This document shows positions 5,078 through 58,248 of a stretch of 64,000 nt of DNA, in pieces. The notes below the pieces were generated by a model, which saw only the letters and a list, made by a program, of their open reading frames with translations, was not told the DNA's origin and did not search any database. This stretch comes from Myxococcales bacterium (GTDB taxonomy: Bacteria > Myxococcota_C > UBA6777), in the NCBI GenBank assembly GCA_020632975.1, contig JACKEL010000001.1:151983-215982 (forward strand), written 5' to 3'. Made by a program: the position numbers and the translations under genes. Each line of letters starts with the position of its first letter. Within the stretch, counting starts at the first letter, position 1.

Positions 5078-5587
5078 ATGCCCAAGGACTACACTTATTG
5101 TCCACAATGCAGCAAAGCATTGATCCAAGCCGAACGCGGCGGCCGCCAACGTGCGATCTGTCCTGATGAAACGTGTGGTTTTGTCCATTGGAACAACCCA
5201 ACCCCCGTGGTAGCCGCCATCGTCGAACACGAAGAAGGTATCATCCTTGTGCGAAACCAAGGATGGCCCGCTTCTTGGTTTGGTCTCGTCTCTGGCTTCC
5301 TTGAAGCTGACGAAACCCCAGAAGAAGGCATCTTACGCGAGATCAAAGAGGAACTTGCGATCGACGCACAGCTTGTCTCTTTTATCGGTGCATACGCCTT
5401 TTCCATGCGCAATGAACTGATCCTCGCCTACCATGTCAAAGCGCAAGGAGAGATCACCCTCAGCGAAGAGATCGCAGCCTACAAAGCCGTCCCCGCACAA
5501 AAGCTCAGACCTTGGCCTTTTGGGACAGGCGAGGCTGTTCGCGACTGGCTCACCCAACAAGGATTTTCTCATCATCTCGCTGAATAA
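5078..5587 (+). CDS. NUDIX hydrolase with N-terminal NudC-type zinc ribbon
   Basis: CPQC...CPDETC zinc ribbon. Nudix box GLVSGFLEADETPEEGILREIKEELAI (Gx5Ex7REUxEExGU). AAGGAG lies 5 nt upstream of ATG 5078. Confidence 0.8.
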   Translation: MPKDYTYCPQCSKALIQAERGGRQRAICPDETCGFVHWNNPTPVVAAIVEHEEGIILVRNQGWPASWFGLVSGFLEADETPEEGILREIKEELAIDAQLVSFIGAYAFSMRNELILAYHVKAQGEITLSEEIAAYKAVPAQKLRPWPFGTGEAVRDWLTQQGFSHHLAE

Positions 5588-5784
5588 AGCAAAAACCTCC
5601 CACCTGTTCCACCCCTCCCCTCAAAGCCTCAAACAATTTTTTCCCTCAAAGAAATATCTTGACACACTGCTTCGATTTCAGTTAGCAATAGCACAGCCCG
5701 CACCAGAAGTATCCTTCGAGAAGAGAGCCACTTAGCTCGATCCTTGGGGAATTATGACGCTTATTTTTTATGGAGTATGTTCTT

Positions 5785-6174
5785 ATGATCTCAAGCGCAC
5801 GTCATCCTCTTGTTTCTATTGTAAAAATCGTTGCCATGCTTAGCGTTGTTTTGGTGTTGGCTTATGCATGTGGCGTAGATGCTGTTTGTACGGGTGGTGG
5901 TTGTACCCAGACCTGCTCGGGTTCTTCTTGTCCTTACACATGCGCGGGCGGAAACTGCACCCAAACTTGTGCAAGTGGCGCAAACTGCAACTTCACTTGC
6001 GAAGGCGGCGGTTGCACCCAAACTTGCGCAAGCGGCGGAAACTGCAACTTCTCCTGTACAGGCGCAAACTGCGTGCAAAAATGTACCGCTGATAGCACGA
6101 CCTGTAACCTCGCTTGTTCGGGCACCAACTGTTCGCAAGACTGCGCAGGCAACGCCGTTTGCACTGCTGGCTGA
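5785..6174 (+). CDS. small secreted Cys-rich repeat protein (20 Cys, about 9-residue C-x3-C-x4/5 periodicity)
   Basis: Signal peptide ...IVKIVAMLSVVLVLAYA|CGVD (AxA cleavage site). The mature region is CTGGGCTQTCSGSSCPYTCAGGNCTQTCASGANCNFTCEGGGCTQTC... Alternative start ATG 5770. GGAG upstream. Confidence 0.5.
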   Translation: MISSARHPLVSIVKIVAMLSVVLVLAYACGVDAVCTGGGCTQTCSGSSCPYTCAGGNCTQTCASGANCNFTCEGGGCTQTCASGGNCNFSCTGANCVQKCTADSTTCNLACSGTNCSQDCAGNAVCTAG

Positions 6175-6271
6175 GTCCCCCTCTCCCCATGTATCCGTTC
6201 GCATCGCTCACTTGGGAAGCCTAGCTTCTCTTTCCCCACCCCCTTCCATCTCCCTCACCCAAGAAATATTC

Positions 6272-7474
6272 TTACTTTTTCTTTTGCTCTTTTTCCAAAG
6301 CCACAACGCGTAAAAATCTTTCTAGAGCATAAAGATACATCTGCCCTGAGGGACCAAACAAATTGGCTTCGCAGCCATGGCTTGCCCAAGGGATCTCCAA
6401 CAAGAAGTGCTTTACACCGTGTTCTTGGAGCTTTTTCGCGAGACGGCGGCTCTGCTTGTAAGACACCAACTCATCTCGAAACCCGTGAATCATCAGCGTT
6501 GGAGGGACATTTTTCTGCACAAGATACAGCGGAGAAGCCGCGTCGTAAGCCGCTTTCTTCTTCTTGGGCGTTCCTCCCAAAAACTCACCCAAGGTCCCAG
6601 GCGTGCTGATCACCCAAGGATTGGAGGGATGTCCCCAACTCCAGTTCATGTCCGTGGGTCCGTACAAATCCACAACGCCACGAACACCCTTGATCGCACC
6701 GCGATACCCCACCAACAAAGCAAGGTGCGCACCTGCGCTTCTTCCCAACAAGACGAGCTTTTGCGGATCGAACTGGAACTCTTTTGCCTTGCTTTGCAGC
6801 CAACGAATCGTGTGTTCTACATCATCGCGTTGTGCGGGGAACTGGTACTTGGGCGCCAAACGATACGTGATAGAAGCCACCGTAAAACCACGCGCCGCAA
6901 GATAATGATTGACTGCGGGGAGTTGGTGGATATCGCCTCGTTTCCAAGCACCGCCGTGGATCACCACCACCAAAGGTTGCACACCCGTCACATCCACACG
7001 ACGGTAGATCTCCAAAGGTAGCTTTTTTCCATCTCCAACGGTCACTTCTTCGCGGCGCACCCGCACTTTGGGGCTTCCCACCCCCCACAAACGACCCAAC
7101 ATCAAAGGACGTTCTTGGCCGAAAGCCCCTTGAACATGCAAGGGAGGCTGCTTTCCCCAAGCCTTCTCAAAAGCTTTTGGTAGCTCTCGACCCAACACAC
7201 TCGCTCGCATCCATGGACTCAAGAGCAGCAGCCCTGTGACGATCCCGATCCCCCACAAGCCATGTGAAAAAGTCGCACCACGCGCCAAGAAACAGCCCAC
7301 ACCCACCACCAAAACCAACCAATGCCCCCACTCGATCACCCCGACAGATAGCAACCACAAGATATTGGTAGGCGCCCGAAAGATCGACAACAACGACATC
7401 AAAGCCAATGGTAATAACAAGATCCACGCAGCCCATGCTTGCCATCCCATGCCTTTTGCTCCCTTTTTTTCCAT
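6272..7474 (-). CDS. membrane-anchored alpha/beta-hydrolase esterase/lipase (HGG oxyanion motif, GxSxG)
   Basis: N-terminal multi-TM segment. HGGAW oxyanion motif and GRSAG nucleophile elbow. Start ATG 7474 is preceded by AAGGAGG at 9-nt spacing. The track ORF begins with a TTG 9 nt further upstream. Confidence 0.75.
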   Translation of the reverse strand: MEKKGAKGMGWQAWAAWILLLPLALMSLLSIFRAPTNILWLLSVGVIEWGHWLVLVVGVGCFLARGATFSHGLWGIGIVTGLLLLSPWMRASVLGRELPKAFEKAWGKQPPLHVQGAFGQERPLMLGRLWGVGSPKVRVRREEVTVGDGKKLPLEIYRRVDVTGVQPLVVVIHGGAWKRGDIHQLPAVNHYLAARGFTVASITYRLAPKYQFPAQRDDVEHTIRWLQSKAKEFQFDPQKLVLLGRSAGAHLALLVGYRGAIKGVRGVVDLYGPTDMNWSWGHPSNPWVISTPGTLGEFLGGTPKKKKAAYDAASPLYLVQKNVPPTLMIHGFRDELVSYKQSRRLAKKLQEHGVKHFLLEIPWASHGCEANLFGPSGQMYLYALERFLRVVALEKEQKKK

Positions 7475-7628
7475 CCTGCACAACCTCCTTGTTTTTGATG
7501 CGACACCCTACCATACCTCCCACAGCTCCCGAAATATCCCGACCCCACAAAGAAGCGACCTCTCGCGCACCACATGGCCTCTCGCCTTCCACTCTGTTAT
7601 GCTCTGCCCAAAATCAAGGAGGTTGCAT

Positions 7629-8741
7629 ATGTTTTCTTTTTCTTCTCGTCGTCGGACACCCTTGTCGTGGTTTTCTCTCTACGTTTACTTGTGGGCCATC
7701 TCGACTTTGTTTGTTGGCTGCCCGCAGTCCCCATCGACCCAAGAGCCCTCATCCACCCAAGAATCCACAGCCGAAAAAGCAAAAGAACCAACGTTAGAAC
7801 ATCCACAAGAACCCATACAAACAGAACCTTTTGCCAAAGAAGAAGACATCTGGGATGCCTCGGCAGAACAGAGTCCAGAACGATCACCCGAAAAAGGCCC
7901 TGAACCTCGTCCAGAGCCAAGCCCAGCAGAAGAGGCACCACCAGAACAACCTGCACAAGAAGCCGCTCCACCCGAGTCGACGTGCGGCAACAAGCTGTGC
8001 GATCCTGGAGAGACAACAACCTCTTGTCCCCAAGACTGCCCACCGACGATCTGGAAACCCACCCCTGGCACCACGTGGCACTGGCAACTCACAGGGACGT
8101 TGGACACAAGCGTTAAAGCACAGATGTATGACATCGATCTCTTCGATCACACGGCCCAAACCATCGCTTCCCTCAAAGCGCAGCAAAAAGTGGTCATCTG
8201 TTATTTTAGTGCAGGATCTTACGAAGACTGGCGCCCAGACAAATCCGCCTTTACAGCTGCTGTCAAAGGCCAAAAGATGGATGGTTGGGATGAACTTTGG
8301 CTGGATATCCGCGCAACCAATGTCCGCGACATCATGAAAACACGCCTCGATCTCGCGAAACAAAAAGGCTGTGATGGCGTAGAGCCCGACAATGTCGATG
8401 GATACCAAAACAAAACGGGGTTCCCGCTCACCGCCCAAGATCAACTCGACTTCAATCGCTTCTTGGCATCCGAAGCCCATAAGCGCGGTCTATCCATAGG
8501 ATTGAAGAACGACCTTGATCAGATCAAACAACTTGTAGGTGACTTCGACTGGGCCTTAAACGAAGAGTGCCTTTCCTACAACGAATGCTCTATGCTCCAA
8601 CCTTTCCTAGATGCAGGAAAAGCCGTCTTCCACGTTGAGTACGACAAGACCAAAAGCCAAGTCTGCCCCAAAGTCCCCCAAGGCTTCAGCAGCATGATCA
8701 AACACTGGGATCTTGATGCTTGGGCCATCACCTGCTGGTAA
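7629..8741 (+). CDS. lipoprotein glycoside hydrolase family 114 (endo-alpha-1,4-polygalactosaminidase-like) with Pro/Glu-rich linker and a small Cys-knot module
   Basis: AGGAGG lies 8 nt upstream of ATG 7629. Signal MFSFSSRRRTPLSWFSLYVYLWAISTLFVGC (lipobox). PE-rich low-complexity linker. CGNKLCDPGETTTSCPQDCPP Cys module. GH114 TIM-barrel motifs VVICYFSAGSYEDWRPD, GWDELWLDIR and GCDGVEPDNVDGY. Confidence 0.75.
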   Translation: MFSFSSRRRTPLSWFSLYVYLWAISTLFVGCPQSPSTQEPSSTQESTAEKAKEPTLEHPQEPIQTEPFAKEEDIWDASAEQSPERSPEKGPEPRPEPSPAEEAPPEQPAQEAAPPESTCGNKLCDPGETTTSCPQDCPPTIWKPTPGTTWHWQLTGTLDTSVKAQMYDIDLFDHTAQTIASLKAQQKVVICYFSAGSYEDWRPDKSAFTAAVKGQKMDGWDELWLDIRATNVRDIMKTRLDLAKQKGCDGVEPDNVDGYQNKTGFPLTAQDQLDFNRFLASEAHKRGLSIGLKNDLDQIKQLVGDFDWALNEECLSYNECSMLQPFLDAGKAVFHVEYDKTKSQVCPKVPQGFSSMIKHWDLDAWAITCW

Positions 8742-18000: not shown

Positions 18001-18231
18001 CTCACCACCATCCTTGGCCTTCTTCCGATGGCCATTGGTGCTGGTGAAGGTGGCGAAGCACAAGCACCACTCGCAAGAGCTGTGATCGGGGGCCTTCTCA
18101 GCTCCACGATGATCACGTTGTTCTTTATCCCTTCGTTCTATCAGATCTACTACCGCAACCGCCCTGCCCCCGAACCCATCGACGCAGGCACCCCACCCAC
18201 AACCTCACCCACGGCCTCACCCACGGCCTAA
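15082..18231 (+). CDS. RND efflux transporter permease (AcrB/HAE family)
   Basis: 1049 aa with 12-TM architecture and large periplasmic loops. The N-terminus [40 protein letters not shown] is AcrB-like. AGGAGG RBS. The gene overlaps the MFP stop region. No outer-membrane factor gene is adjacent. Confidence 0.9.
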
Positions 18232-20766
18232 CCCCCAGCCTTCTCGCCTTCTTCGTACCGCAAGCAACAAGAACAATCCAAACAAACCACCCAACCATGC
18301 GGTGCCTTCGACCGATTGGCAGCCCATCCGCATCAAAGGTGCGCAGTTCGGGCCTTCACAAGCCGCTTGCGAGACCTGACAGATCTCCTTCGAACTATCG
18401 CACAAATAAGAGCTTGTGCTTTTGGACTCTTCCAACCAAGAGATCGGTGCCCCTTCTTGGCAGACCCCTTGGTAACAAGATGCGCCATCTGCACAACCGC
18501 AGTCCGCAGCGCAACCAGAGCAGTCCTCACCAAAGCTACAGACACCATCGCCGCAACGCGGTGCTTGCTCGTTTTCGTTGCAGTATCCGAGACCTCCAGC
18601 CAAACTCACCTGACAAAATCGACCACTTGGACATCCATGGACCGCAGAGCATCCACAAAACCCTTCATTCGGCTTGTTTCCAGGGATCACACATGCGCCA
18701 CCAGTGACCGAACAACCACCAGCTTCGCCAGGAACACAAGGTTCCAAACAGACCGAACCTTCACTGAGGTTCGCGCAAACCAAACCTGTTGCACACGCAT
18801 CCAAGGCCGAACAACGCTCACCCACGCCACGCGCTCGGCGACAAACACACGCCGCGCTATTGACATGACAAGCCACATCTTTGCTTGCATCGCGGCAGGT
18901 GGTGCCCGCCATACAACCGACTTCACCTAGCGTAGGAGGAGGAGGCGCACATGCCCCGATATCTTTGCGGAAGATCTGTTGAAACAAACCCTTCTCACAA
19001 CGACCCGTTTTGCACTGGCTATCTTGTGAACACACGCAAGACTTCCCTACACCCGTGATGTTCATGCAGCTACCACCATTGGAACAGTCTGCGTCAACCT
19101 CACAACGCTGTGCAAAACAAACAGGCGAGGGATAACCGATATCCGCGCAAAATCCGCCCAAGCCACACGCACCATCTCGACAAAAAGATCCAGGTGTTCC
19201 CAAAGAACGCTCCAACGCTCGTTGGGCAGGAGCTCCACAAAGGCGCTGACAAACACGTTTGTTCTCGTGGTTGTAGGCACACTGCAATCCAGGGGCACAG
19301 GGATGTGCATCATCGCATGACTGCTCAAGAGCCCGACCTTTGGGCATTTGACACTGGCCCCCACGACAAACTTGGGAACCCGAACAGTCGCGATCACTTT
19401 GGCAACCACACATCCCGCTGACAGGTACGCAAGAACGACCGCCGCCGATCTCTTGGCAAGCATAACCCGAAGGACAAAAGACCCCAGCTTCACACGCTTG
19501 CAAACAACGAGAGGTCTCAGCACCCAACTTCACGCATCGCTGACCCACTGCACAAGTACCACTTTGACAAGCTCCACATGCCCCCGCAGCCACCGCCACA
19601 TCAGGAACAGAACACTTCCCAGAGCGACAGATCTCACCAGCACCGCAGTCATCATTTTTCTTACAAGTGGTTTCAGAACACGAGCCCGCCAAAGGCAAGC
19701 ATTGTTTGACACCTTGGATCGTTCCGCAAGCATAGCCCGCAGGACAAGCATCATCGCGTCCACAAGTCTGCAAACAACGATATCCTTCCGCCAAACGAGC
19801 ACAAAAATTCCCGTTTCCACCGCACTCTTGCGAGACAGAACAAGGACGACAAAGACGCCCATGACTCGCGGCTTCAGTCGGCACACAAACACCATCTCGA
19901 CACTGTGCCCCCACACCACACGAGCTATCTCCTTGGCACGCGGGGAACTCTTGCTGCTCGACTTGTTCCATCCAACTTCGATAGACATCCACGCGGAAAG
20001 CAACCGAACTACCGTCACAACGAGACTGTCCAGTATCGTCTTTGGTGCCCATCCCATAAGAGATCACACCTGCAACAACCAAACCTCCCGACTCTTGGAG
20101 CAAAACAGGACCGCCTGAGTCACCACTACAAGCACTGCGTCCCATCGCATAACCTTCGAGGCGATCCGCTTGCATCTTCAACAAAGGCAAGATCGCTTGA
20201 AAACGACGCTTCGCACCCACCACAAAAGGAGTCGTCTGCAACAGACCGTAGCCTGTCCACACCATCTCTGTACCAATCGCCAAAGAGTCCATCGGACGGG
20301 AAACAACAGGCAAAGGCTGCGCGTGATGAACCACACGATCCAAAAACAAAAGCCCCAGATCATTTTGCGGGACCTGTCCAAGCTCCGCTGACGAAGCGGG
20401 ATGCTCGATGGCTTTTGTGACTGTGTAATAGGCACTTGAGATCTCGCCATGGATGGGAAGATCCAAACGAAACTCCACGGGAGTCCCTGCTTTCATCAGG
20501 CGATGGATCTCTTGGATACAGTGGGCTGCCGTCAAAACGGTACGCCCTTGAATCAAAGCACCCGAACAAAAAGGAATGCCTCGTCGCGCAACCAAAGCCC
20601 CGACCCCTTGCATCCGCTCTGCGGGAACGCCCCCGATGATCTTTTTCTCCTGGACCCCGATCTCTTCGGGGCTATATTCGTTTGCACATCCCATCGCTAG
20701 GAGCGCCAAACCTACCAAACAAAACAAGCCTACCCAACGAAAAAGCCCGCTTCCGTGCCGCTTCAT
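18217..20766 (-). CDS. secreted trypsin-like (S1) serine protease lipoprotein with about 15 Cys-rich modules and C-terminal MYXO-CTERM-type sorting tail
   Basis: Start MKRHGSGLFRWVGLFCLVGLALLAMGC (lipobox). Catalytic triad His in TAAHC, Asp in QNDLGLLFL, Ser in GDSGGP. Repeated C-x3-DC-x2-G-x2-C-x3-G-x-C modules follow. The C-terminus is ...[36 protein letters not shown] (GC, hydrophobic span, Arg cluster). Confidence 0.8.
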   Translation of the reverse strand: MKRHGSGLFRWVGLFCLVGLALLAMGCANEYSPEEIGVQEKKIIGGVPAERMQGVGALVARRGIPFCSGALIQGRTVLTAAHCIQEIHRLMKAGTPVEFRLDLPIHGEISSAYYTVTKAIEHPASSAELGQVPQNDLGLLFLDRVVHHAQPLPVVSRPMDSLAIGTEMVWTGYGLLQTTPFVVGAKRRFQAILPLLKMQADRLEGYAMGRSACSGDSGGPVLLQESGGLVVAGVISYGMGTKDDTGQSRCDGSSVAFRVDVYRSWMEQVEQQEFPACQGDSSCGVGAQCRDGVCVPTEAASHGRLCRPCSVSQECGGNGNFCARLAEGYRCLQTCGRDDACPAGYACGTIQGVKQCLPLAGSCSETTCKKNDDCGAGEICRSGKCSVPDVAVAAGACGACQSGTCAVGQRCVKLGAETSRCLQACEAGVFCPSGYACQEIGGGRSCVPVSGMCGCQSDRDCSGSQVCRGGQCQMPKGRALEQSCDDAHPCAPGLQCAYNHENKRVCQRLCGAPAQRALERSLGTPGSFCRDGACGLGGFCADIGYPSPVCFAQRCEVDADCSNGGSCMNITGVGKSCVCSQDSQCKTGRCEKGLFQQIFRKDIGACAPPPPTLGEVGCMAGTTCRDASKDVACHVNSAACVCRRARGVGERCSALDACATGLVCANLSEGSVCLEPCVPGEAGGCSVTGGACVIPGNKPNEGFCGCSAVHGCPSGRFCQVSLAGGLGYCNENEQAPRCGDGVCSFGEDCSGCAADCGCADGASCYQGVCQEGAPISWLEESKSTSSYLCDSSKEICQVSQAACEGPNCAPLMRMGCQSVEGTAWLGGLFGLFLLLAVRRRREGWGLGRG

Positions 20767-20843
20767 CGCACTTCTCCCGTCCCGCATCCCTTGCAGGAAT
20801 TATTCAGAAAAATTCTTAGATGAGATATGCCATCAAGGAGAGA

Positions 20844-23024
20844 TTAGGAGGCGATTTCCAAAGCCACGATCTCGTCCGAAAGATGGCGATGAAGGGAAGA
20901 CTTTTGCTCAGAAAAAGCTGTATTTTTTCGTTGAGAGAGCACCAATGAGGTCGCATCTTCTTCGTACAACGGCCGCGAAAAATAATATCCTTGGCCCATA
21001 CGACATCCGTCTTCCCAAAGAAGCCGATGTTGGCGCGCTGTCTCGATGCCTTCCGCGATCACACCCAACTTGAGATGGCTCGCAAGAGACAAGATCATGT
21101 GGATGATAGACCGCCCACCTTCTCGTTCTTCCATGTTCCTAACAAATGAACGGTCGATCTTGATCGCATCTATAGGGAATTGATGAAGATAACTCAAAGA
21201 AGAGTATCCTGTCCCAAAGTCATCCATGCAGATCTCAACCCCTAAACCCCTGAATTGATGAAGTAAATCAATCGCAACTTTGGTATCTTCCATCAAGATA
21301 CTTTCTGTGATCTCGATCTTCAACCAAGAGGCATCGATCCCTGTTTCTCGAATCAAGTCCGACAAACGCTCGACCAAAGCTGGCGTCGCAAACTGCTTGC
21401 TCGAAAAGTTCACATGCAAAGAGAGGATATCCTCCCGACTTCTCATGCGATTCCACTCTGCAATCTGCTTGCAGGACTGCTCCAAAACCCACCAACCGAT
21501 CTTGACGATCGCTCCTGTCGCCTCCGCCAACGGAATAAACTCAACAGGTGAGATCATCCCTCGTTCTGGATGGTGCCAGCGCAACAGAACCTCAAATCCC
21601 TTCAAATCGCCCTTGTCTAGGGAAACAAGCGGTTGGTACATCAACACCAGCTCACCTCGATCACTGGCTCCCCAAAGATCTTGCTCAAGTTGAAGGCGCG
21701 AACGAAAGCGTTGTTGTGCTTCTGCATCGAAAACTCGATAAGTTCCAGGGCTTTCGTCTTTGACCTGACGCAACGCCAAGTGCGCAGCAGCCAGCAACTC
21801 ATCCGCAGTGGAACACTGCTCGTGAAGATAAGAGATCCCACAACTGATGCTCGGATGATACTCGAACCCACCCAGATCCACAGGATCGTTGAGATGGCCC
21901 AAACAGTCTTGCGCAGCCAAACAACTCTCTCCTACAGAGCCTGTACCACGAAAGACCACCGCAAACTCATCGCTGCCCAAACGACCGAGGAAAAGACTGC
22001 GCGGTGTACACTTCAACAGCCTTTGCGCAAGCGTTCGCAACAAACGATCGCCCGTCGAAATCCCCCAAGTATCGTTGACTTTAGAAAAGCGATCCACGTC
22101 AAACAAAAACAATGTACAGCCATTTTCAGGTTGTATACCCTGCTGACACTCCCGTCGCAGCGACTCCATAAACGCTTCTCGATGCAACAAACACGTCAGC
22201 AGATCATGTTGGGCACGCAAACTCACATGTTGATCTGTTTTCATTCGGCGTTTGATCGCTGACATCGTGCCAATCACACGCAAAGGACGACGAGCGGGGC
22301 CATACACACAAAGACCGCGAAGTTGTACCCACAAACGCTTCCCATCCTTCGAAAGAAAACGCAGCTCGTGGAAGAAAGATTGCTCACCGCGCTCCAACAT
22401 CCGGGAGATCAAACGTTGAAGCTCAGTTCTTTCCTCTGGATGAGAAAGCCGCAACCACTCCTGAAAAGACATCACGCCCGTATCCCCAGGAAGATAGCCC
22501 AACAAACGCTCGCAACCCGAATACATCTTGACCTGGTGAGTCTCGCAGTCCCACTCCCACAAGTGATCTCCCGAACTCTGCGCCAACAAAGCACGCACAC
22601 GCTGGATACGATGTTGCCTGTCTGCACCATCGCGCTCCTGTTGCGCAGCACGCAAAAACAAACGCAGCGTCTCGCTTGTTAACCACTTGAGCGGGATCCC
22701 CAAAGAGATCTCAGACCACATCTCTTGGGGGATGTTCTCAACGTTCAACCCTCCCAACAAAACAATGCTAAAGGACTGATATTGTTGGAGACACAAACGA
22801 TACAGCTTCGCATAATCATAAAAGTCATGCGTCGAAAGAAACAACACAGTAAACTCTGATCGCCCCAGTGCTTCCATCTCCTTCAAATCTGAAACAAAAT
22901 GAAGAACACTTTGGATGGCTGGGTCTTCTGGCCAACGCTGACGCAAGGCTTCAAACTCCCCAACGTCTTTCCCAAGAAAAACAGAAAGAAAAATAGAAGG
23001 TTCATAGTTTACATTTTCTGGCAT
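20844..23024 (-). CDS. PAS-GGDEF-EAL c-di-GMP turnover protein (GGDEF variant RLGSDEF; EAL variant EVLLR)
   Basis: PAS-like region WEWDCETHQVKMYSGCERLLGY. GGDEF domain with RLGSDEFAVVF. EAL domain with EVLLRWHHPERGMISPVEFIPLAE and DDFGTGYSSL. ATG 23024. It lies 77 bp upstream of the protease gene on the same strand. Confidence 0.85.
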   Translation of the reverse strand: MPENVNYEPSIFLSVFLGKDVGEFEALRQRWPEDPAIQSVLHFVSDLKEMEALGRSEFTVLFLSTHDFYDYAKLYRLCLQQYQSFSIVLLGGLNVENIPQEMWSEISLGIPLKWLTSETLRLFLRAAQQERDGADRQHRIQRVRALLAQSSGDHLWEWDCETHQVKMYSGCERLLGYLPGDTGVMSFQEWLRLSHPEERTELQRLISRMLERGEQSFFHELRFLSKDGKRLWVQLRGLCVYGPARRPLRVIGTMSAIKRRMKTDQHVSLRAQHDLLTCLLHREAFMESLRRECQQGIQPENGCTLFLFDVDRFSKVNDTWGISTGDRLLRTLAQRLLKCTPRSLFLGRLGSDEFAVVFRGTGSVGESCLAAQDCLGHLNDPVDLGGFEYHPSISCGISYLHEQCSTADELLAAAHLALRQVKDESPGTYRVFDAEAQQRFRSRLQLEQDLWGASDRGELVLMYQPLVSLDKGDLKGFEVLLRWHHPERGMISPVEFIPLAEATGAIVKIGWWVLEQSCKQIAEWNRMRSREDILSLHVNFSSKQFATPALVERLSDLIRETGIDASWLKIEITESILMEDTKVAIDLLHQFRGLGVEICMDDFGTGYSSLSYLHQFPIDAIKIDRSFVRNMEEREGGRSIIHMILSLASHLKLGVIAEGIETARQHRLLWEDGCRMGQGYYFSRPLYEEDATSLVLSQRKNTAFSEQKSSLHRHLSDEIVALEIAS

Positions 23025-23305
23025 GGTAATTCCCTTTCTGCTTACAAGGATGCAACTGTTTTTCTGAAACAAAAAGAGAGGACAATGTTGCATATTTTCC
23101 CGAAAGCCCGAACTCGACAGAACAAGATGTGTGAGAAAGATAAAGAATGAAATATCATTTATCTTTCAAGAGATAAGCGCAAATATCACTTCTTTCTGGT
23201 ACGAACAAACAAGAAAGAAGCTGCGATCTTCTGTTTGCGTATGGGATAGAACGTCTACCGTGATAAAACCTTTAGACCCTTTCCATACATATCCCCAAAG
23301 ACAAC

Positions 23306-23546
23306 GATATCCAGGATAGATTCGGGCGGACATGGAGGTCCGCCACAGATACGGGATATCCAGGATAGGTTTGGGCGGGCCTCCGTGCCCGCCTCTATCT
23401 GCCCCCGCGTAGGCCTGAGATCATCTATCCCGATCAAGGGCGAGCCTCCGTGCCCGCCTCTATCTGCCCCTGCGTAGGCCTGAGATCATCTATCCCGATC
23501 AAGGGCGGGCCTCCGTGCCCGCCTCTATCTGTCCCCCGCGTAGGCC
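23306..23546. repeat. REP-like palindromic repeat cluster: about 4 units, each carrying hairpin GGCGGGC-CTCCGT-GCCCGCC (one inverted copy GGCGGAC-ATGGAG-GTCCGCC), unit about 65 bp
   Basis: Direct reading shows gatatccaggataga...gggcggacatggaggtccgcc, then gatatccaggataggtttgggcgggcctccgtgcccgcctctatctgcccccgcgtaggcctgagatcatctatcccgatcaa, repeated about 2.7 times. The cluster sits in the divergent region between the GGDEF/EAL gene and the PilZ gene. Confidence 0.7.
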
Positions 23547-23678: not shown

Positions 23679-24836
23679 ATGTTGGATCATCACAAAGAAC
23701 CTACCCAAGACGTACAGTTAGTCCACCAATCCAAAAGTGCTTACAAAGCAGCGAACTACAATCACATGCTTGATCGAGCAAGCGAGGTAAAACAACCCGA
23801 AAAAGAATTACAACGTTTGACCACACAACGTAGAAAACTTTACGATCACTACCGAACTTTCGAAGCTCATCGCCAAGTAGATCCTGAAAGCATCCAAGAG
23901 ATGCACAATATGTTGTTGCGTATCTTTGCCAAACCTCACGATCTTCCATCGCTTTATACGCAACTTGAAGAAGAGTGCGAAAAAGAACTCGCACAAATAG
24001 AAGAATTATTTACAAAGTGCCAAAAAACCCTAGCGATGTGGACAAAAGTAAGCGACGAGATTCGCCATCGCTTGCGGCTTTTGGACTCTTTAGAGATCCG
24101 CCTAACTCTTTTTGCACAGAAAAAAGAGGCAGCGGAAAAAAATCAAAAAAAAGCGACTGAAAAAAACCAACAGAAAAAAGAACGACTGGATATTGGGAAT
24201 TGGCAAGCAAACCCCACAGACACAATTCCTGATCTCCCAGCAGCGACCGAAAGTTCGAGAACGCAAATGAAAACGCACCAAACCATAAACCTAGGCAGCC
24301 CAGTCACACATACGGCTGAATACGCAGCGGCTGCGGCCCCAGCTCCACAGTTGTACCAGTTCCAACAACCACTGGTACCTCCAAAGTTGCCTGAGGCTCC
24401 CCCAAAAACGGTTCAAGCCAAAGCGCCGTCACCCATGCAAACCTCAACACCAAGCGAGCAAGCAGGCGCAGAACGCAGACGCGCTCCTCGGTTGCGCCTT
24501 GCTTCGGATATCACCATCGGAAGAGAGGAACACTGCTTCTTTACAGGATTTTCCGAGAACATCAGTTCAGGTGGAGTCTTCATCGCAACCTATGAAGCTC
24601 TTCCCAAAAAAGGCTCGATTTATGAGCTTTGTTTCTCCCTTCCTACGGGTGAGATCATCCAAAGCGAAGTCGAAGTGATGTGGTCACGTGACTTCAACGA
24701 ACAAACGCCCGAGATCTCCCCAGGATTTGGCTGTCGCTTTCGACAGCTCAAAAAAGCCGATCAAGAACGCATCGATCAATACATCGCCAAGGAAGGCTCT
24801 CTCTTCATGCTTGAAGAAGAAGAGTTGGCGGCTTGA
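23679..24836 (+). CDS. PilZ-domain c-di-GMP-binding protein with N-terminal coiled-coil region
   Basis: C-terminal PilZ signature RRRAPRLR...DITIGREEHCFFTGFSENISSGGVFI (RxxxR plus D/NxSxGG). Long coiled-coil, Lys/Glu-rich N-terminal half. Confidence 0.75.
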   Translation: MLDHHKEPTQDVQLVHQSKSAYKAANYNHMLDRASEVKQPEKELQRLTTQRRKLYDHYRTFEAHRQVDPESIQEMHNMLLRIFAKPHDLPSLYTQLEEECEKELAQIEELFTKCQKTLAMWTKVSDEIRHRLRLLDSLEIRLTLFAQKKEAAEKNQKKATEKNQQKKERLDIGNWQANPTDTIPDLPAATESSRTQMKTHQTINLGSPVTHTAEYAAAAAPAPQLYQFQQPLVPPKLPEAPPKTVQAKAPSPMQTSTPSEQAGAERRRAPRLRLASDITIGREEHCFFTGFSENISSGGVFIATYEALPKKGSIYELCFSLPTGEIIQSEVEVMWSRDFNEQTPEISPGFGCRFRQLKKADQERIDQYIAKEGSLFMLEEEELAA

Positions 24837-25264: not shown

Positions 25265-26278
25265 CTATCGGCTTTTGCGCAGAGGAAACACCTTGGGATC
25301 TCCAGCTGACCAAGCCCACATCGAGCCCGCATAATTCTTCACTTCTTTTGCCCCCAAAACATGCAAGACAGCCACCATCCAAGCTGATCGCACACCTCCT
25401 GTACAATAAGCGACGATCGGTTGGCGAAGAGAGAGCCCATGTCCCTGCATGATCCGCAAAAGCTCTTTCCGAGAACGCAAGCGACCATCCTTCCGTAAAA
25501 ATCGCCGATAATACAATGAAACAGCCTTGGGGAGATGCCCCCCTCGTGACTCTCCATAAGGCGTTTCCCCTCGAAACTCACGTGGTTCCCGAACATCCAC
25601 GATCTGCAACTTCTCTTTTCCTGCCAAGCGTGCCACCAGTCGCTCGCGCAAAACTTTCGTAGAGATCGACCAACGCTTCACTGTCTGCCACGATGTTCGC
25701 TCAGATCTTTTCGTGGGTAAGGGCTTTGCGCGTTGGGGTCTTTTGTGTGTAGGTTTCCCGCCTTCCCATGCCTCTTTTCCCAGAGAAGCCCGCAAAAAAG
25801 GCATCCCACCATCCACAAAAGCTACGCGTCGATGACCAAGCGACCGCAGCATCCAAACGATCCGCCCTTCTTCCCCCCAGCCTCGTAATGGATCACCGAC
25901 GACGATCACCACGCGCTGTTTCGAGATCCCGATCTGCTCAAAAGACCGAACCAACCGTCGAACAGAGGCCAGTTCACCACGCCAAGGCTTGCGCTTTCGA
26001 GAAAAGTCCAACCACTCCACACACACAGAACCACGCACATGTAGACGAAGCCATGCGGACTTACCACGAACATCAAGGACCAAAGCCCCTCGACGAATCC
26101 ACAAAGCCCCCTCTTTTGCTGAGACCACCCAAGGAATCTCAGCAACCGCGATGGCCCACTTCATCCCGCCCAGCCACACAAAACTTGCCAAACCGCACAA
26201 CAAGATCGCTCGTTTCAATGGGATACTCCTCTCACAAACACCAAAGCATCGGGCAAAAACGACACACGCCATCTCCAT
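25265..26278 (-). CDS. tandem rhodanese-domain sulfurtransferase (C-terminal domain with active Cys)
   Basis: Second domain carries AYCTGGVRSAW (the CxGGxR rhodanese active-site loop). The first domain lacks Cys. An N-terminal hydrophobic segment is present. The start is uncertain: ATG 26278, 26272 or 26164. Confidence 0.7.
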   Translation of the reverse strand: MEMACVVFARCFGVCERSIPLKRAILLCGLASFVWLGGMKWAIAVAEIPWVVSAKEGALWIRRGALVLDVRGKSAWLRLHVRGSVCVEWLDFSRKRKPWRGELASVRRLVRSFEQIGISKQRVVIVVGDPLRGWGEEGRIVWMLRSLGHRRVAFVDGGMPFLRASLGKEAWEGGKPTHKRPQRAKPLPTKRSERTSWQTVKRWSISTKVLRERLVARLAGKEKLQIVDVREPREFRGETPYGESRGGHLPKAVSLYYRRFLRKDGRLRSRKELLRIMQGHGLSLRQPIVAYCTGGVRSAWMVAVLHVLGAKEVKNYAGSMWAWSAGDPKVFPLRKSR

Positions 26279-26588
26279 CCAACAAAAAAAGCCAATACGA
26301 CCACCGCTTCATGCCCACTGTAGGCCTGCTCTCTCCCCAAAGGAAGAGCAACGCATCCTCCTCTCCCTCCAACGCAACACAAAACGACGCAGGACTCGTT
26401 CGTTCGTCCAAGAAACCCCGCCAACAAACGCTGAACCAACGAGAAGTCGCTTCACACCCGCAAGGTTTCGTGCCAAGATAGCCAAAACGATCATCCACGG
26501 GGACAAAAGAACTATAGATATCAGCTACTTTTATCCCCCCAAAAGAAAAGAATGCGCACAGCGCGCCAAAAGCATAAAGGAGCGAGCC

Positions 26589-29500
26589 TTGTTGGGGTCA
26601 TGGAGACAAGCAGGAAAGTTTTGGGGCCTGTTGTTTGGATTATGTTTTTTGGGGGCTTGTTTTTCGAACGCGCCAGCTCCCGAACAACTCAAACACAAAC
26701 AACAAGCCATCATCGGAGGCCAACCCGATCTGCGCTATCCAGGCGTAGGTGCGCTGACCGTCAACCGCTCCTCTTTTTGCACGGGAACCTTGATCGCCAA
26801 ACGCGTTGTATTGACGGCGGCTCACTGCGTGGACGCGGCCAACAGTTATCGCGGAGCATCTGTGGAGTTTCGCATCGATACGCCCGATGCCAACGCATCT
26901 TCGGGTTACCAAACCAATTACTTTGTCTTTGATCCCGACCTCTTCAAAACACATCCCATCTGGAACACCAATCTCTCCAATGGCGGTGATCTTGGGATCG
27001 GGATCTTAAAACAAAGCGTCACGGTTGCCCAAACCATCCCCGTGAACTTCAACACCAATGCTGGTCTTTGGTCCAACAAAAGCCCGCTTTTCCTAGGTTA
27101 TGGACTCTTACAAAGTACACCCACACGGATCTCCGCAGATCGTAAATATGGGGTAGAGATCCCGATCGTGCAGGTCAATACGGATCGCTTTACGCACCAA
27201 GCCAACGGAAAAAGCGTTTGTCACGGAGACTCAGGTGGTCCTGCTTTGGTCCTCGTCGATGGAAAAGTCCGCGTGATCGGCGTCAACTCCTATGTATCCG
27301 CAGCATCCGTCCCTGGCGCCAACCCACCTCGCTCAAGTTGCACGGGCTCGGGAACCTCTATGCGGACGGATACTTACAGCACTTTCGTTCAATCGGTACT
27401 CTCTAGCTATGGTGATGGTCCTGAACCTTGCACACAAGACGAAAACTGCGGTGTTTGCCGTCGCTGCGGTGCCAACAAGTTTTGCGAAGGGGTACCCATC
27501 CAAGTCTCCCCCAGCATCTGTGGGGCTTGCTTGGCAGACAAAGACTGCCCTGGGGGTGGCTGTTATCGCTTCCCTGAAGGCAACCGCTGCTTGCTTCAGT
27601 GTGACACCCAAAACTGCTGTCCTGACGGTCATTATTGCACGACTGTACAAACCTCCTCAGGGCTCAATAAAGTCTGTATGCCTTTTGAAGGTGCCTGTCC
27701 TCCCCTTCAATGTAAGACATCTTCTGACTGTGGCGCAGGAGAGTTTTGCGAAAATCAAAAGTGCCAACCCAAGCCTGTCGCCCGAGCAGCCGACCTTTGC
27801 AAACCTTGCCAAACCCAAGCAGACTGCCAAACCACAGGAGGGTACTGTCTTGGCTTGGAAGGACATCGCTATTGCACACAACCCTGTAACGCTGGGGATT
27901 TCTGCCCTGCAGGATACGCATGCCAAGAAGCCTACCCAGGCATCCCCAGACAGTGCTTGCCAGAAAATGGCGCTTGCCAAGTGCCTTGTATGTTCGACAT
28001 CCACTGCCCAACAGGACAAACTTGTGTAGGTGGCGTTTGTGCAGAGCCACAAGGCGGAGATGCCGGGGCATCTTGCGACCCTGTCCCATGCAAAGAACCC
28101 CTTTCTTGTGTCTCCACCCTAAGCGGAAAACGCTGCCTTTCGACTTGCGGCGCCCCCCCCTCCAAACCCGGAAGCGCTTGCGCTGATGGGACGCGATGTG
28201 ATGCGCCCATGTCTTGCTACAGTATCTCTTCCACCCAACAGATCTGTCTCCACCCCTGCAACGCTGACGAAGACTGCAACAAAGTGGGGGGTGGCTTTTG
28301 TTACCAAAGCGTCTGCGCTTGCCAAAAAAGCCAAGACTGTGGACAAGACTTTATCTGCAACACAAGCTCAGGTGTGATCGGGGCTTGCGTCTCCAACAAA
28401 GACATCCAATCCTGCGAAAACAGCGACGCTTGCGACGCCTTCCAAGGTCAAAGTTACTGCATCCAACCCAACCCCGGTACACGCGCCTTGGGGCAGTCTT
28501 GTGACCCTCTCAACCGCTGCAAAGAAGGGCTTGTCTGCACCAAAAGCAACGATGGATATTTCTGCGCAGAAGACTGTAGCCAAACCCAAGCCTGCAAGTT
28601 TGGCGGATACTGCGGAAAACCCAACACACAAGTTGACATCTGTTATTGTGCGGAAGACAAAGACTGCGGCCCAGATTACACTTGTAGCCGCGTATTTCGG
28701 CCTTTTGGTATCTGTGTAGGAAAGCTCCTCAACAATCCCTGCCAAAGTGACGGTGCCTGTCCCCCTGGATTTGCTTGCCGTGAAGGTCGATGCCTATCCC
28801 CCACAGAACTCGAACAGTGGAAACCCGAACCTGCTCCACCCGATGCAGGCCCCGAATCCCCCACAGAGTCCGCGCTCGAAGCAGTGCAAGAGTCCCCCAA
28901 AGAAGCGACCCCCGAACCCCAAGTGGAGCCTACCCCCGAAAGACAAGCCGAGGCACCCGCAGAGATCGCACCCGAACAAACCAAACCAGGATGCGGTTGT
29001 CAGTCTTCTCCTACACCATCCACACCCTTTTCATGGGGACTTTTGATGCTCTTCGCCTTGCTCTGGCTCCCTCGCCCCAAAAAACGCGAGATCCGCCTAA
29101 AAGAAATACTCCCTACTCTGGCTTTCTTTTTTCTTACAGGCTGCCCCAATCCTTCGGTCCCTTGTAGCCAAGACACAGAGTGCCCAACCAACCAGCGCTG
29201 CCAAAGCGGGACTTGCCAAGCTGGCTCCTCGGAAACCACCACCCCAGAAAAAACCACAGAGCCCCAAACAGAGTTGACCCCCGAACGCACGCCCGAACCG
29301 ACCTCCGAGCCTCAAGCAGAGCCGAGACCAGAACCTCAAGTGGAGCCTGCCCAAGAAGCGTCCCCAGAACCTCAACCCGAGGCAGGACCCGAACCTCAAC
29401 CCGAGCCTTTACCCGAACAACTCACAGATATCGCCCCAGGCCAACGCCCCAACCCCTGCGCCCACACCAACGATCCGACATGTTGTTCTCCCACCATTTT

Positions 29501-32500
29501 ACAAAGACGTTGGGAAGCTTTTAACGACAACAACAGTCGTTTGGGCATCATCCGCATCGCGCTCAGTCCAGACGGAAAATGGATGGCGTCCGTCAACGAT
29601 GAAGGCCGCATCGTCCGCATCTGGGATATCGACAAAGGGCAACTCAAGTACACTTTTGTCGAGCCCAGCAGCACCATGCAAGCGGTCTCTTTTAGTCCTG
29701 ATAGCCAAGTCGTCGCAGCAGTCGGTAGTGATCGCGTCGTGCGGCGATGGAGCCTCAGCGATGGAACGACACTGCCCTTACTCCAAGGACACACAAGCAC
29801 CGTCTATGCGGTGGCTTTTAGCCCAGACGGTCAGTGGATCGCGAGTGCAGGCGCAGATCGCGTGATTCGCTTATGGAAAGTAAGCGACGCAAGCCTTACC
29901 TTCGAGATGAAGGGACACACCAGCACGATCTGGACCTTGGTTTTTGCCCCCGACAACAAGACGCTATACTCCGCATCCAGCGACCAAACCATCCGTTACT
30001 GGGACGTCAGCACAGGAAAAGAAACCCAACAATACAAGCTACATACCGCAGCAATCCGCGGTTTAGCGATCAGTCCAGATGGAAAAACACTCGCTTCTGT
30101 CGCTCTATCTCCCGATCGCACCGCAAAGTTGATCGAGGTCGCCACAGGAAAAGAACTCCGCTCATGGCAAGCCCACGGAAGCAGTTCATTGTACGGCGTC
30201 GCTTTCAACCACGATGGAACGCGTCTCGCGACCGTCGCAACCGATCGCTATGTTCGTGTGTGGAATGCCAATACAGGGCAGATGCTCTACCAACATCGTG
30301 CAGACGCAACGCCCTACAGTGTCTCTTTTCACCCGGATAAAACGAGGATTTTTGTCGCCTCATCCGATCAACATGTACGCATCTTCAATGATACCAGCGG
30401 ACAAGTGACACAAACGCTCCACACAAACTTCGACCGTGTTTCAAGCGTTGCGATCTCACCTGACGGAAAAGTCGTTGCTTTTGCCAACGCTCGCATCAAC
30501 AACATCCAGCTTTGGGATCGCCAAACCAAACAGCTTCTGCGCACACTTCAAGGACATACGCATGGGGTTCGCGCCCTCTCCTTTAGCGCCAACGGACAAT
30601 ATCTCGCCTCCGCCTCGACAGATCGCAGCGCACGGATCTGGAATCTTTCGGATGGAAGCCTCGTTCGCGCGCTAGACGCCCATCCCATGGTCGTAAGCAG
30701 CGTCGTACTCAGCGCCAATGGAGAAACCGCCGCAACAGGTTCATGGGACGGCAAGATCCGCATCTGGAAGATCGCTGACGGCTCTCTCTTGCGCACACTC
30801 GAAGGACACACCAGAGAGATCGTCCATCTCGCCCTATCTTCGGATGAAAGTGTATTGGTCTCTTCTTCGATCGATCAAACAGCGCGTTTGTGGCAGTGGT
30901 CAGATGGCGCCCCCCTGCAAACCGTACAAGCCAACGCACCAGTCTACGGTTGTGCGATCTCTCCAGACAAAAACACCCTTGCTGTCGGCGATTGGGAGGG
31001 GCGTATCCTCCTTTGGCAAGCTAGCACGGGCATGTTGCAAAGCACACTCCAAACCCACAGCGCCAATGTCCGCAGCCTCGCCTTCGACGAACAAGGTGCG
31101 TGGCTGGCCTCTGCTTCTTATGATCGTACCGTTCGGATATCGCGGGTCAGTGATGGAGCGCTCCTCCAAACCTTGCGACCACGCAACCAATACGTCACAA
31201 GCGTTGTCATCCAAAAAGAGACACTGGCAACCGCAGGAGCGGACGGAAACGCCGACATCTGGGACTTTCAACCCGTCCCGCCGGTCACGAGTCTGGCAGA
31301 ACAAAAGAGCCCCATCCTCGCTCTCTCTCTCAGTGCGGACGGCAACCTGATCGCAACAGGGACAGCCGACCATCAGGTCCGTGTATGGGACCGAACCCAA
31401 AAGACGTGGCTTCACACCCTGTCAGGCCCACAAGATGCGATCAATGCACTCGCAATAAGCCCTGACCAACGCTTTTTGGCCGTTGCATCGGCCGATCGTT
31501 CGATCTACGTCTGGAGCCTCGCAGATGGCAAGCTTTTGCGCGCCTTCCAAGGACAACAAGATCAACCATCCTCTGTCTCGTGGAGTCCAGACAGCAACGT
31601 CTTGGCTGTGGGTGCTTGGGACGGTAGTGTCCGAACTTGGGCTTGGCGCTCAGGACTCAACCAAAGAACCTTTCTTACAAACAACAGCCGAACCTTGAGC
31701 GTGGCCTTTAGCCCTGACGGAAACAACCTAGCAGCGGGACTTTTCAATCAAGAGATCATGATCTTTGAAGTCGCTTCAGGCAAACATCTCCGCACGCTCC
31801 AAGGACATACAGGCGGCGTAACGCATCTGCTGTTTTCAAGAGATGGAAAAAGCCTTTATTCGGCCTCTTACGATCAAACCATACGCATCTGGGACAGCAG
31901 CGCAGGAAACCTCCGCAACACACTCCAAGGACACAGCAACACGGTCCAACAAGTCAGCCTGAGCCTCGACGAAAGTCTCCTTCTATCAGTATCTTGGGAT
32001 GGGACACTACAGATCTGGGATCTTGCCAATCTTCAAATGCTTCAAAGAATCCATCTTGACCAAGGCGCCCTCTACAGCGCAGCTTTGAGCGCAGACAGTC
32101 GCTTTTTGGTTGCAGGTGGCGCAGATGGCGAGCTACGCAGCTGGGACCTTTTGCGCGATCCTCGACAACAGATCCTCGAACGTAATCCCCTCAGCGTCCG
32201 CGCATTGGCCTTCAGCATAGACGGAAACTACTTGATCTCAGGCAACGACAACGGTCTCGGACGCATCGATCGTCGTAGTGACTGGCGCTGGCTTCACTCG
32301 ATCTACAGCCACAGCGCAGACCTTCGCGCCATCGCGATGAGCCCCGACAGTTCGCGCTTTGCGACAGTGGGTGCAGACAAGCGCGTCCGCGTCGCAAGCA
32401 CCAGCGACAACAAAGAACAATTCAACGACAACAAACAACACACAGCCCCCCTCCACGCCGCAACCTTCAGCCCAAATGGTCAAACTTTGGCCACCGCAGG

Positions 32501-33041
32501 CGAAGACAAGCAGATCCTCCTTTGGTCGATGAGCACCAATCAAGTGACCCAAACCCTCACCGGACACACCCAAACCATCACGGCTCTGGCCTACCACCCC
32601 AAAACAAACTGGCTCGCATCTTCTTCGCTCGACCAAAGCATCCGACTTTGGGACCCCACCAACGCCACGATCCTCCGAACCCTTTCAGGACACACCCAAG
32701 GCGTCATCAGCTTGGATGTCCACCCCCAAGGAAACGTGCTCGCATCTGCCGATCAAGGCGGAGAGATCCGCATCTGGGATACACAACAAGGCACCACCCT
32801 ACAGACTCTCACCTCCAACGTCGCCCCCACCCAACTGCGTTTCAGCCCCAACGGACACTGGCTTGCCATCGCTTACATCGACGGGCACGTTGAACTTCGA
32901 GAGACGATCTCTTACAAAGTCTCCCACACCTTGCAACTCCAACGCATCCCAACCTACGCCCTTGCGTGGTCCGCGGATGCCCAAACAATCGCCCTTGGCG
33001 ACCAAGCCGCAGGGATCTCGCTGTTCACTTGCAGCCCCTAA
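26589..33041 (+). CDS. giant lipoprotein: S1 serine protease, then Cys-rich modules, a PE-rich linker, an internal MYXO-CTERM-like segment, a second lipoprotein-like signal, and about 28 WD40 repeats
   Basis: TTG 26589 is preceded by AAGGAG at 6-nt spacing. The track ORF from 25989 would overlap the rhodanese gene. Signal [25 protein letters not shown]. Triad TAAHC / NGGDLGI / GDSGGP. More than 15 Cys modules, then ...[36 protein letters not shown], then [18 protein letters not shown], then WD40 units ([30 protein letters not shown]... repeated to 33041). Confidence 0.8.
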   Translation: [2150 protein letters not shown]

Positions 33042-36700: not shown

Positions 36701-41019
<4,319 letters not shown>

Positions 41020-41026
41020 GAGGCCC

Positions 41027-41377: not shown

Positions 41378-41381
41378 TCCC

Positions 41382-42406: not shown

Positions 42407-42428
42407 CCACAAAAAAGGAGTTCCTCTC

Positions 42429-42719: not shown

Positions 42720-42763
42720 GCAGAACATCCGAAACAACCGCACATTGCGCAAAGGAGCCGTTC

Positions 42764-58173: not shown

Positions 58174-58248
58174 CGTAACATCCTTGTTTTGCAGTAAAAA
58201 GGCCACCAGTCCGTGGTAGCCTTCAAGTGAAAGAATCTCTCTTTTTTC

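Follow-up and report, generated by a model that had tools for sequence, protein, structure and literature searches.

A conserved cysteine-repeat protein of a Myxococcales bacterium, predicted to be a disulfide-braced beta-solenoid lipoprotein

We studied a short gene for a cysteine-rich exported protein in a 64,000-nucleotide stretch of DNA (positions 151,983 to 215,982 of contig JACKEL010000001.1, assembly GCA_020632975.1) from a Myxococcales bacterium. This whole stretch is called the window, and all coordinates of the locus refer to it. An earlier note on this DNA, made from the sequence alone, had described the product as a secreted mini-protein with 20 cysteines at a strict 9-residue period, reminiscent of disulfide-laddered beta-solenoids such as insect antifreeze proteins (AFPs), of metal-binding peptides, or of bacteriocin-like products. 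The features at the locus are collected in Table 1. Here we describe the gene and its precursor protein, the family to which the protein belongs, and its predicted fold and disulfide pairing, and then weigh the possible functions.

The gene and its precursor protein

The full sequence of the pre-protein, translated from positions 5785-6174 of the plus strand, is MISSARHPLVSIVKIVAMLSVVLVLAYACGVDAVCTGGGCTQTC...AGNAVCTAG, and the peptide given in the earlier note agrees with it letter for letter from C35 to C126. An in-frame alternative ATG is located at 5770 and has no Shine-Dalgarno-like element. We preferred 5785 as the start because GGAG precedes the ATG at 5785 only. An exact-sequence look-up of both start variants showed that neither had been recorded. 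The hexamer TTGACA that the earlier note gave as a good -35 does exist upstream of the gene; however, it is not followed by an acceptable -10 hexamer, and a promoter scan of positions 5400-6500 gave no sigma-70 site. A terminator scan found none for this gene. Several long open reading frames (ORFs) in other frames or on the opposite strand overlap the coding region. These antisense and other-frame ORFs were examined as candidates and rejected; they lack signal peptides, and their similarity across loci mirrors the conservation of the sense frame.

The signal peptide ends with L-A-Y-A before C29. Its n-region carries two charges (R6 and K14), which are followed by an h-region of 14 uncharged residues (I15-A28). 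C29 aligns with the lipobox Cys of 29 homologues, most of which have the canonical L-[AV]-[AG]-C. In the window protein the lipobox is A-Y-A-C; position -1 fits the pattern [LVI][ASTVI][GAS]-C, whereas positions -2 (Y) and -3 (A) are atypical. The box satisfies a relaxed, PROSITE-style lipobox rule, and a lipobox-like signal was found in 121 of 178 family proteins. On these signals, lipidation at C29 is likely, though not certain. The product is better called a probable lipoprotein than "secreted", the term of the earlier note.

The mature chain contains 21 Cys residues (29, 35, 40, 44, 49, 53, 58, 62, 68, 72, 77, 81, 87, 91, 96, 100, 107, 111, 116, 120, and 126), which make up 21% of its length. 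The successive spacings after C29 are 6, 5, 4, 5, 4, 5, 4, 6, 4, 5, 4, 6, 4, 5, 4, 7, 4, 5, 4, and 6, so that the minimum is 4. When 21 Cys were placed at random in 101 residues, none of 200,000 placements had all gaps between 4 and 7, and the regularity thus greatly exceeds what chance would give. The count of 20 cysteines holds for the repeats (C35-C126); the mature chain has 21, C29 included. The strict 9-residue period was not borne out: half-units of 9 and 10 residues alternate, and the true repeat is a double unit of 19 residues (18, 19, 19, and 20 in the window protein) with the pattern C-x-G-G-x-C-x-Q-x-C-x-x-G-x-x-C-x-F/L-x. The Cys-repeat domain begins 6 residues past the lipobox Cys.

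Table 1. Features of the window at and around the Cys-repeat gene
Feature	Position	Strand	Basis or remark
TTGACA hexamer	5659..5664	+	Sequence reading; no acceptable -10 hexamer downstream
GGAG, Shine-Dalgarno-like, 9 nt 5' of ATG 5785	5772..5775	+	Direct sequence reading
Coding sequence, 129-aa pre-protein, including stop	5785..6174	+	ORF list and translation; frame kept in homologues from other phyla
Signal peptide, residues 1-28	5785..5868	+	Aligns with signal peptides of 29 homologues
C29 codon, probable lipid-modified +1 Cys	5869..5871	+	Column invariant Cys in 30/30 aligned sequences
Cys-repeat domain C35-C126, some 4.75 coils, each with 18-20 residues	5887..6162	+	Spacing analysis, family consensus, AlphaFold2
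57-nt (19-codon) tandem duplication, 1.9 copies, 84% matching, equal to coils 2 and 3	5956..6064	+	Tandem Repeats Finder
NUDIX hydrolase	5078-5587	+	As stated in the earlier note
BD-FAE/alpha-beta-hydrolase esterase, convergent	6272-7483	-	As stated in the earlier note
GH114 glycoside hydrolase with Pro/Glu-rich N-terminal region, beyond the esterase, about 1 kb from the Cys-repeat gene	7236-8741	+	
GH9/Laminin_G_3 protein, farther off	54745-58206	-	

A family of Cys-repeat proteins

The window protein matched no model in Pfam (E ≤ 1) or NCBIfam (E ≤ 10), and the Cys region of 30 members, scanned singly, matched none at E ≤ 0.1. In particular, the models TIGR02232, DUF4215, chlamydial Cys-rich outer membrane protein (OMP), and DUF3060 were matched neither by the window protein nor by the Cys region of the 30 members. 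Searches of the PDB sequences, both with the single protein and with a profile, gave nothing below an E-value of 0.88, and a literature search found no description of the repeat.

In a word-indexed search with the single protein, we obtained one homologue (P0001), which came from a hydrothermal-vent metagenome. Its architecture is that of the window protein. When the two are aligned, an internal gap of 19 residues, or about one coil, appears; P0001 is short by this coil at the site of the tandem duplication. The two proteins were combined into profile A1, and an exhaustive HMMER search with this profile gave 360 cluster representatives at E ≤ 1e-3 (44 at E ≤ 1e-10), the best at 4.7e-30. Coral and multidomain members scored from 1e-18 to 1e-21. 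The earlier note had proposed a search for similar periodic Cys proteins and a check of the reading frame in relatives. The 360 representatives are the outcome of the former; as to the latter, the frame is intact in relatives at 41-53% identity. These closest relatives (P0001/P0002 and L016) share the architecture, and L016 is a full-length look-alike of 132 residues, 50% identical over the domain (pairwise E 4e-27). A genome scan added 12 loci, and a profile-based scan of metagenomes added 28 more distant ones; a metagenome scan aimed at close relatives found none. The loci from the scans include Nannocystis sp. and N. pusilla, as well as metagenome-assembled genomes (MAGs) of Nannocystaceae, Kofleriaceae, and Bradymonadales, and members with a taxonomic label belong to Kofleriaceae, Sandaracinaceae, or Myxococcota.

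The consensus of 400 units is C-[SAD]-G-G-[GND]-C-[TS]-Q-[TV]-C-x-x-G-[AS]-[TS]-C-x-[FL]-[TS], to which the units of the window protein conform, and the columns of Cys, G75, and Q79 are invariant in the 30 aligned sequences. Positions 5785-6174 are thus a real, conserved gene, and its product belongs to a large family for which Pfam and NCBIfam have no entry and no structure has been solved.

Most members start with a lipoprotein signal ending with L-[AV]-[AG]-C and carry the Cys domain at the C-terminus, in many cases with a long low-complexity linker in between. The window protein has no such linker and is a minimal version of this architecture. In L003, L004, L005, L008, and L017, the linker between the lipobox and the Cys domain contains 'DGVKAGGVEV'-like repeats. 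Other members carry the Cys domain on larger proteins. In P0191, it is C-terminal to an OmpA peptidoglycan-binding domain, and in P0056 it follows an outer membrane beta-barrel and a Pro-rich hinge. The partner is NHL repeats in P0051 and CARDB in P0025, and in P0038/P0175 (Thermomonas), DUF3060 (PF11259) is fused directly upstream of the Cys domain. In the case of the coral Stylophora pistillata, the repeat is present in the ectodomain (residues ~28-260) of an adhesion G-protein-coupled receptor (GPCR; XP_022790917.1, P0006; 7tm_2). The repeat of P0006 has 19-20 residues, and its match to the window domain spans 94 residues with 41% identity (E 8e-17). Some large Cys-repeat proteins that look eukaryotic by sequence (P0003, P0039, P0043, and P0047) also match. 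The domain assignments place every partner context outside the cytoplasm or outside the cell, and the occurrence of the repeat in bacteria and a coral points to one of two possibilities, a domain shared across kingdoms or a transfer event.

Predicted fold, disulfide pairing, and proposed product

A structure prediction, also proposed in the earlier note, was performed with AlphaFold2. With two sequences the model was unconvincing (predicted local distance difference test score, pLDDT, 63), whereas the alignment of 30 homologues gave a confident all-beta repeat model with a mean pLDDT of 85. The values were 91-97 over residues 41-120 but fell to 85 at residues 31-40 and to 72 at residues 121-129. 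Two types of strand alternate along the model: the T-Q-T-C type at 41-44, 59-62, 78-81, 97-100, and 117-119, and the C-N-F-T-C type at 49-53, 67-72, 86-91, and 106-111. Conservation alternates as well. Q8 of the unit (54%) and a hydrophobic residue at position 18 are kept, as are the cysteines that flank them, whereas positions 7, 9, 17, and 19 are polar and variable, as expected for strands that bury one face.

A Foldseek comparison of the model with the PDB gave no significant match (best E 0.27, all TM-scores below 0.4). All 34 weak matches were beta-helix or solenoid proteins. They included DUF3494 ice-binding proteins, the luminal domain of SV2, bactofilin, the C-terminal domain of CAP, SufD, TBCC, hemolysin A, alginate lyase, and a leucine-rich repeat protein. 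The viral structure library BFVD gave no match. The fold of the window protein is thus predicted to be a beta-solenoid without a close solved relative. The likeness to a disulfide-laddered beta-solenoid of the insect AFP kind is sustained as an analogy by AlphaFold2, Foldseek, and the Cys statistics, but the protein falls outside the insect AFP family.

The pairing of the Cys residues was examined in coils in which successive GG turns fix the register. All Cys are present in 208 such coils, and C10 and C16 are both missing from another 14; none lacks C10 or C16 alone, one-residue register shifts excepted. As the two residues are lost only jointly, they are probably partners, and their bond would close the xxGxx turn. 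The two Cys of a C-x3-C pair inside one strand are too far apart for a disulfide. The domain opens (C35-x4-C40) and finishes (C120-x5-C126) with a turn pair. With no bond inside a strand and turn pairs at both ends, the remaining bonds would be C1-C6 across the xGGx turn. Counted past the lipobox Cys, 111 of the 121 lipobox-bearing members (92%) have an even number of Cys, and the window protein has 20; this parity fits a full pairing within the domain, with the +1 Cys kept for the lipid. We infer that the disulfides are intramolecular and that each closes one turn.

Taken together, these results make it probable that the gene encodes an envelope lipoprotein of ~10 kDa, a disulfide-stapled beta-solenoid that serves as a binding or scaffold module. 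According to this proposal, the pre-protein would be exported by Sec, C29 would receive diacylglycerol, and the signal peptide would be removed (the Lgt/LspA pathway). Oxidation in the periplasm would then convert the 20 Cys to ten consecutive nearest-neighbour disulfides (C35-C40, C44-C49, C53-C58, C62-C68, C72-C77, C81-C87, C91-C96, C100-C107, C111-C116, and C120-C126), every one of which would close a turn containing glycine. The product is predicted to be a beta-solenoid of two sheets, with about five coils of 19 residues each and a length of ~2.4 nm. Its core would consist of the disulfides, a Gln ladder, and a Phe/Leu/Tyr ladder, and it would present two flat polar outer faces, Thr-x-Thr and Asn-x-Thr/Ser. 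At the membrane surface such a domain, rigid and resistant to proteases and heat, would serve for binding or as a scaffold; it would be neither an enzyme nor a metal store, nor a peptide that diffuses. On envelope proteins of the family the Cys domain stands at a terminus, also at places where a periplasmic peptidoglycan-binding domain is usually found, and this placement favours a rigid binding or scaffold module.

Several points speak against this proposal. The non-canonical A-Y-A-C is also a good signal peptidase I site, and a soluble periplasmic or secreted product is therefore possible. The disulfide map comes entirely from the statistics of the sequences. Every named member is a 'hypothetical protein'. 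A binding or scaffold role is the most likely one, but it is argued from architecture.

A broader proposal can be made only tentatively, and we regard it as possible rather than probable. The two-sheet, 19-residue solenoid with two turn-closing disulfides per coil may be a previously undescribed fold family, of which the window protein would be the minimal form. This family would occur in Myxococcota lipoproteins and in the ectodomains of cnidarian adhesion GPCRs, and its hyperstable surface would recognise a ligand of periodic structure, which could be a glycan strand, a mineral, or ice, for instance.

Genomic context, alternative explanations, and known systems

The earlier note had stated that the gene stands alone between a NUDIX gene and a convergent esterase gene. 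This is correct. Both genes were confirmed, and the neighbours are not conserved. For the comparison, the flanking ORFs of the window and 14 related loci were subjected to all-against-all BLAST, and three more contexts were examined through gene tables; no conserved gene neighbourhood was found among them. The only shared flanking family was acyl-CoA dehydrogenase, 1-4 kb away at four loci, which we judged to be a coincidence. The NUDIX neighbour was matched solely on a 2-kb Logan contig, and in other genomes no conserved linkage of GH114 or GH9 to the Cys-repeat gene was found. The neighbours in the window also include an M1 peptidase, an aldo-keto reductase, LysR, a CDP-alcohol phosphatidyltransferase, and a bPH protein, and efflux genes of the RND/HlyD type are located 7-12 kb from the Cys-repeat gene. 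At one locus, L045 (Sandaracinaceae MAG, GCA_046351195.1), an LGT gene (7264-8016) is located ~2 kb from the family member, probably by coincidence.

Other parts of the window contain further Cys-rich coding regions. An ORF of 2350 residues (25989-33041, plus strand) has Cys-rich segments of another pattern (CGACLADKDCPGGGC...), and a trypsin-domain protein (18217-20787, minus strand) has a Cys-rich stretch; judged from such sequences, the genome seems to be rich in disulfide-rich exported proteins. Inside a Ser/Thr kinase gene (48876-52328, minus strand), 4.3 copies of an 18-bp unit (49000-49077) yield a spurious plus-strand Cys-rich ORF (CASCFRCASCF...), a false positive made by the repeat. 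A 65-bp unit repeated 2.7 times with 95% identity (23373-23546) is intergenic, between a GGDEF/EAL gene (20844-23093, minus strand) and a PilZ gene (23679-24836, plus strand). A cluster of ATP-synthase genes (38930-46087) encodes a subunit of the alpha/beta family, a b/delta fusion, and an alpha subunit (43540-45138). The last is 81% identical to 'alternate F1F0 ATPase' proteins of Myxococcota, which assigns the window to this phylum. GC skew is negative in every 2-kb bin of the window (positions 1-64000; -0.04 to -0.25, cumulative -4.6) without a switch, and the plus strand is C-rich.

Of the other explanations for the Cys-repeat gene, a spurious ORF that arose from a GC-rich DNA repeat and makes no protein has a negligible probability. 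Long ORFs do overlap it in other frames and on the other strand, and a promoter consensus was not found, but a start with a Shine-Dalgarno-like element, a signal peptide, and a conserved Cys/Gly/Gln register come together in this frame only, and the register is kept at 40-55% identity in hundreds of sequences from different phyla. It is improbable that the protein is an envelope cross-linker like OmcA of Chlamydia, with intermolecular disulfides of its own that would stiffen the outer membrane or a spore coat. The architecture is indeed that of a small Cys-rich lipoprotein, and the envelope of Myxococcota is remodelled during sporulation; however, the chlamydial OMP families of Pfam gave no match, and the even parity, the pairwise loss, and the self-contained, confidently predicted fold favour pairing within the molecule. 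The same two regularities bear on a thiolate metal binder, that is, a periplasmic metallothionein-like buffer of Cu, Zn, or Cd with reduced Cys, which we consider slightly less probable still. The high content of Cys in the mature chain and the efflux genes at some distance would suit it. On the other hand, pairwise loss of Cys and an even count in 92% are what disulfides predict and a metal cluster does not; the protein is exported to an oxidising compartment, contains no C-C, C-x-C, C-x-x-C, or His motifs, is modelled with confident beta-strands and conserved Gly turns, and has no conserved linkage to metal genes. The metal-binding reading of the earlier note is thus not supported.

An ice-binding or antifreeze function, in which water would be ordered by stacked outward Thr-x-Thr rungs, as it is by TmAFP of the beetle Tenebrio molitor and by other insect AFPs, is very improbable, even though it has several observations in its favour. 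On one face of the model, six of the ten outward positions are Thr (C-T-Q-T-C at 40-44, 58-62, and 77-81, followed by V-Q-K and S-Q-D), Thr occupies these positions at 22-24% across the family, many ice-binding proteins occur among the weak Foldseek matches, and short-coil, disulfide-braced solenoid AFPs are known (PMC13080227). However, those Foldseek matches are insignificant and reflect the beta-helix class, and the face is not conserved: the nearest homologues carry D, K, E, N, or V at the outward positions, which are thus variable and often charged. There are only three to four regular rungs, a membrane-anchored periplasmic site is a poor one for an AFP, and the sources of the homologues are a hydrothermal-vent metagenome and mesophilic soil myxobacteria (Nannocystis). 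We therefore do not retain the antifreeze function. The bacteriocin-like reading, by which the gene would encode the precursor of a ribosomally synthesised and post-translationally modified peptide (RiPP), either a bacteriocin, a lanthipeptide (Ser/Thr and Cys), or a lipidated DAG-RiPP, has an even smaller probability. The product is small and rich in Cys and Thr/Ser, and RiPP precursors with a lipobox have recently been described (PMC13056109). Nevertheless, neither a modifying enzyme (MNIO/DUF692, radical-SAM, LanB/C/M, or YcaO) nor a dedicated transporter is encoded within ~7 kb on either side, RiPP-type maturation enzymes are absent from eight other genomic contexts, and the neighbourhood is not conserved. 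In addition, the Cys domain is also a part of large multidomain envelope proteins and an animal receptor, and a well-folded globular domain is predicted.

The disulfide-stapled envelope lipoprotein is thus the explanation that we prefer. The family comprises hundreds of sequence clusters from bacteria and animals, none of which has a model in Pfam or NCBIfam, a relative of solved structure, or an annotated function. The window gene is nearly the smallest self-contained example (~95 residues, ten predicted disulfides) and would be convenient for structure determination and disulfide mapping. If the turn-stapled solenoid is correct, it would represent a new way of stabilising a beta-solenoid, in which covalent staples replace Ca2+ or a hydrophobic core, and could provide a compact, hyperstable scaffold for protein engineering. 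The occurrence in Myxococcota, a phylum with predatory and social species, and in a coral receptor hints at extracellular recognition and a possible inter-kingdom transfer, neither of which is established.

Among the known systems, two kinds of disulfide-rich protein resemble the window protein in their place in the envelope or at the cell surface. OmcA is likewise a Cys-rich envelope lipoprotein of ~9-10 kDa; however, its sequence is unrelated and its disulfides are intermolecular, whereas parity and joint loss in the window family indicate intramolecular pairs. The stalk of TraA, a surface receptor of Myxococcus, and the Myxococcus cysteine-rich repeats are tandem disulfide-rich repeats that form a rigid extracellular stalk or module on the myxobacterial surface. 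We take TIGR02232 and DUF4215 to be the models of the latter. The window repeat differs from them in length and Cys pattern, and matches no corresponding model of NCBIfam or Pfam.

The resemblance to the solenoids is one of shape. TmAFP is a very thin beta-solenoid with a disulfide interior, short regular coils, and outward Thr-x-Thr, and is small and secreted. However, its coils have 12 residues (TCTxSxxCxxAx) and one disulfide each, whereas those of the window protein have 19 residues with two predicted turn-closing disulfides and Gln and Phe ladders. There is no match between the two in sequence, Pfam, or fold, and TmAFP was not among the Foldseek matches; moreover, the window protein is bacterial, has a predicted lipid anchor, and has no evident ice-related context. 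[quoted passage not shown] Of the systems compared, it is the closest to the window protein (C-x4-C-x3 / C-x5-C-x3) in Cys spacing. The midge repeat has the spacing C-x4-C-x4 and a Tyr ladder. Its unit is a single 10-residue coil, whereas the window protein has two non-equivalent half-units (xQx and xFx) per 19-residue coil, and no homology was detected.

Two further systems have coils of nearly the same length. The RTX beta-roll and region IV of the Marinomonas primoryensis AFP, a 19-residue Ca2+-bound beta-helix, are two-sheet solenoids with coils of 18-19 residues and Gly-rich turns, which are held by Ca2+ on Asp in GGxGxD motifs. In contrast, the turns of the window protein (xGGx and xxGxx) have no Asp and are flanked by Cys, so that covalent staples would replace Ca2+. 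The window protein has no GGxGxDxUx and only three Asp in the mature chain, and did not match HemolysinCabind of Pfam. DUF3060 is also bacterial and signal-peptide-bearing, with a repeat of ~19-20 residues and G-x-x-N turn motifs, but it is cysteine-free, and its model was matched by none of the 30 members. TmAFP, the midge AFP, the Ca2+ beta-rolls, and DUF3060 are thus structural analogues, not homologues. On the model, the window protein would be a disulfide-braced beta-solenoid, which is a known structural kind, from a family uncatalogued in Pfam and NCBIfam.

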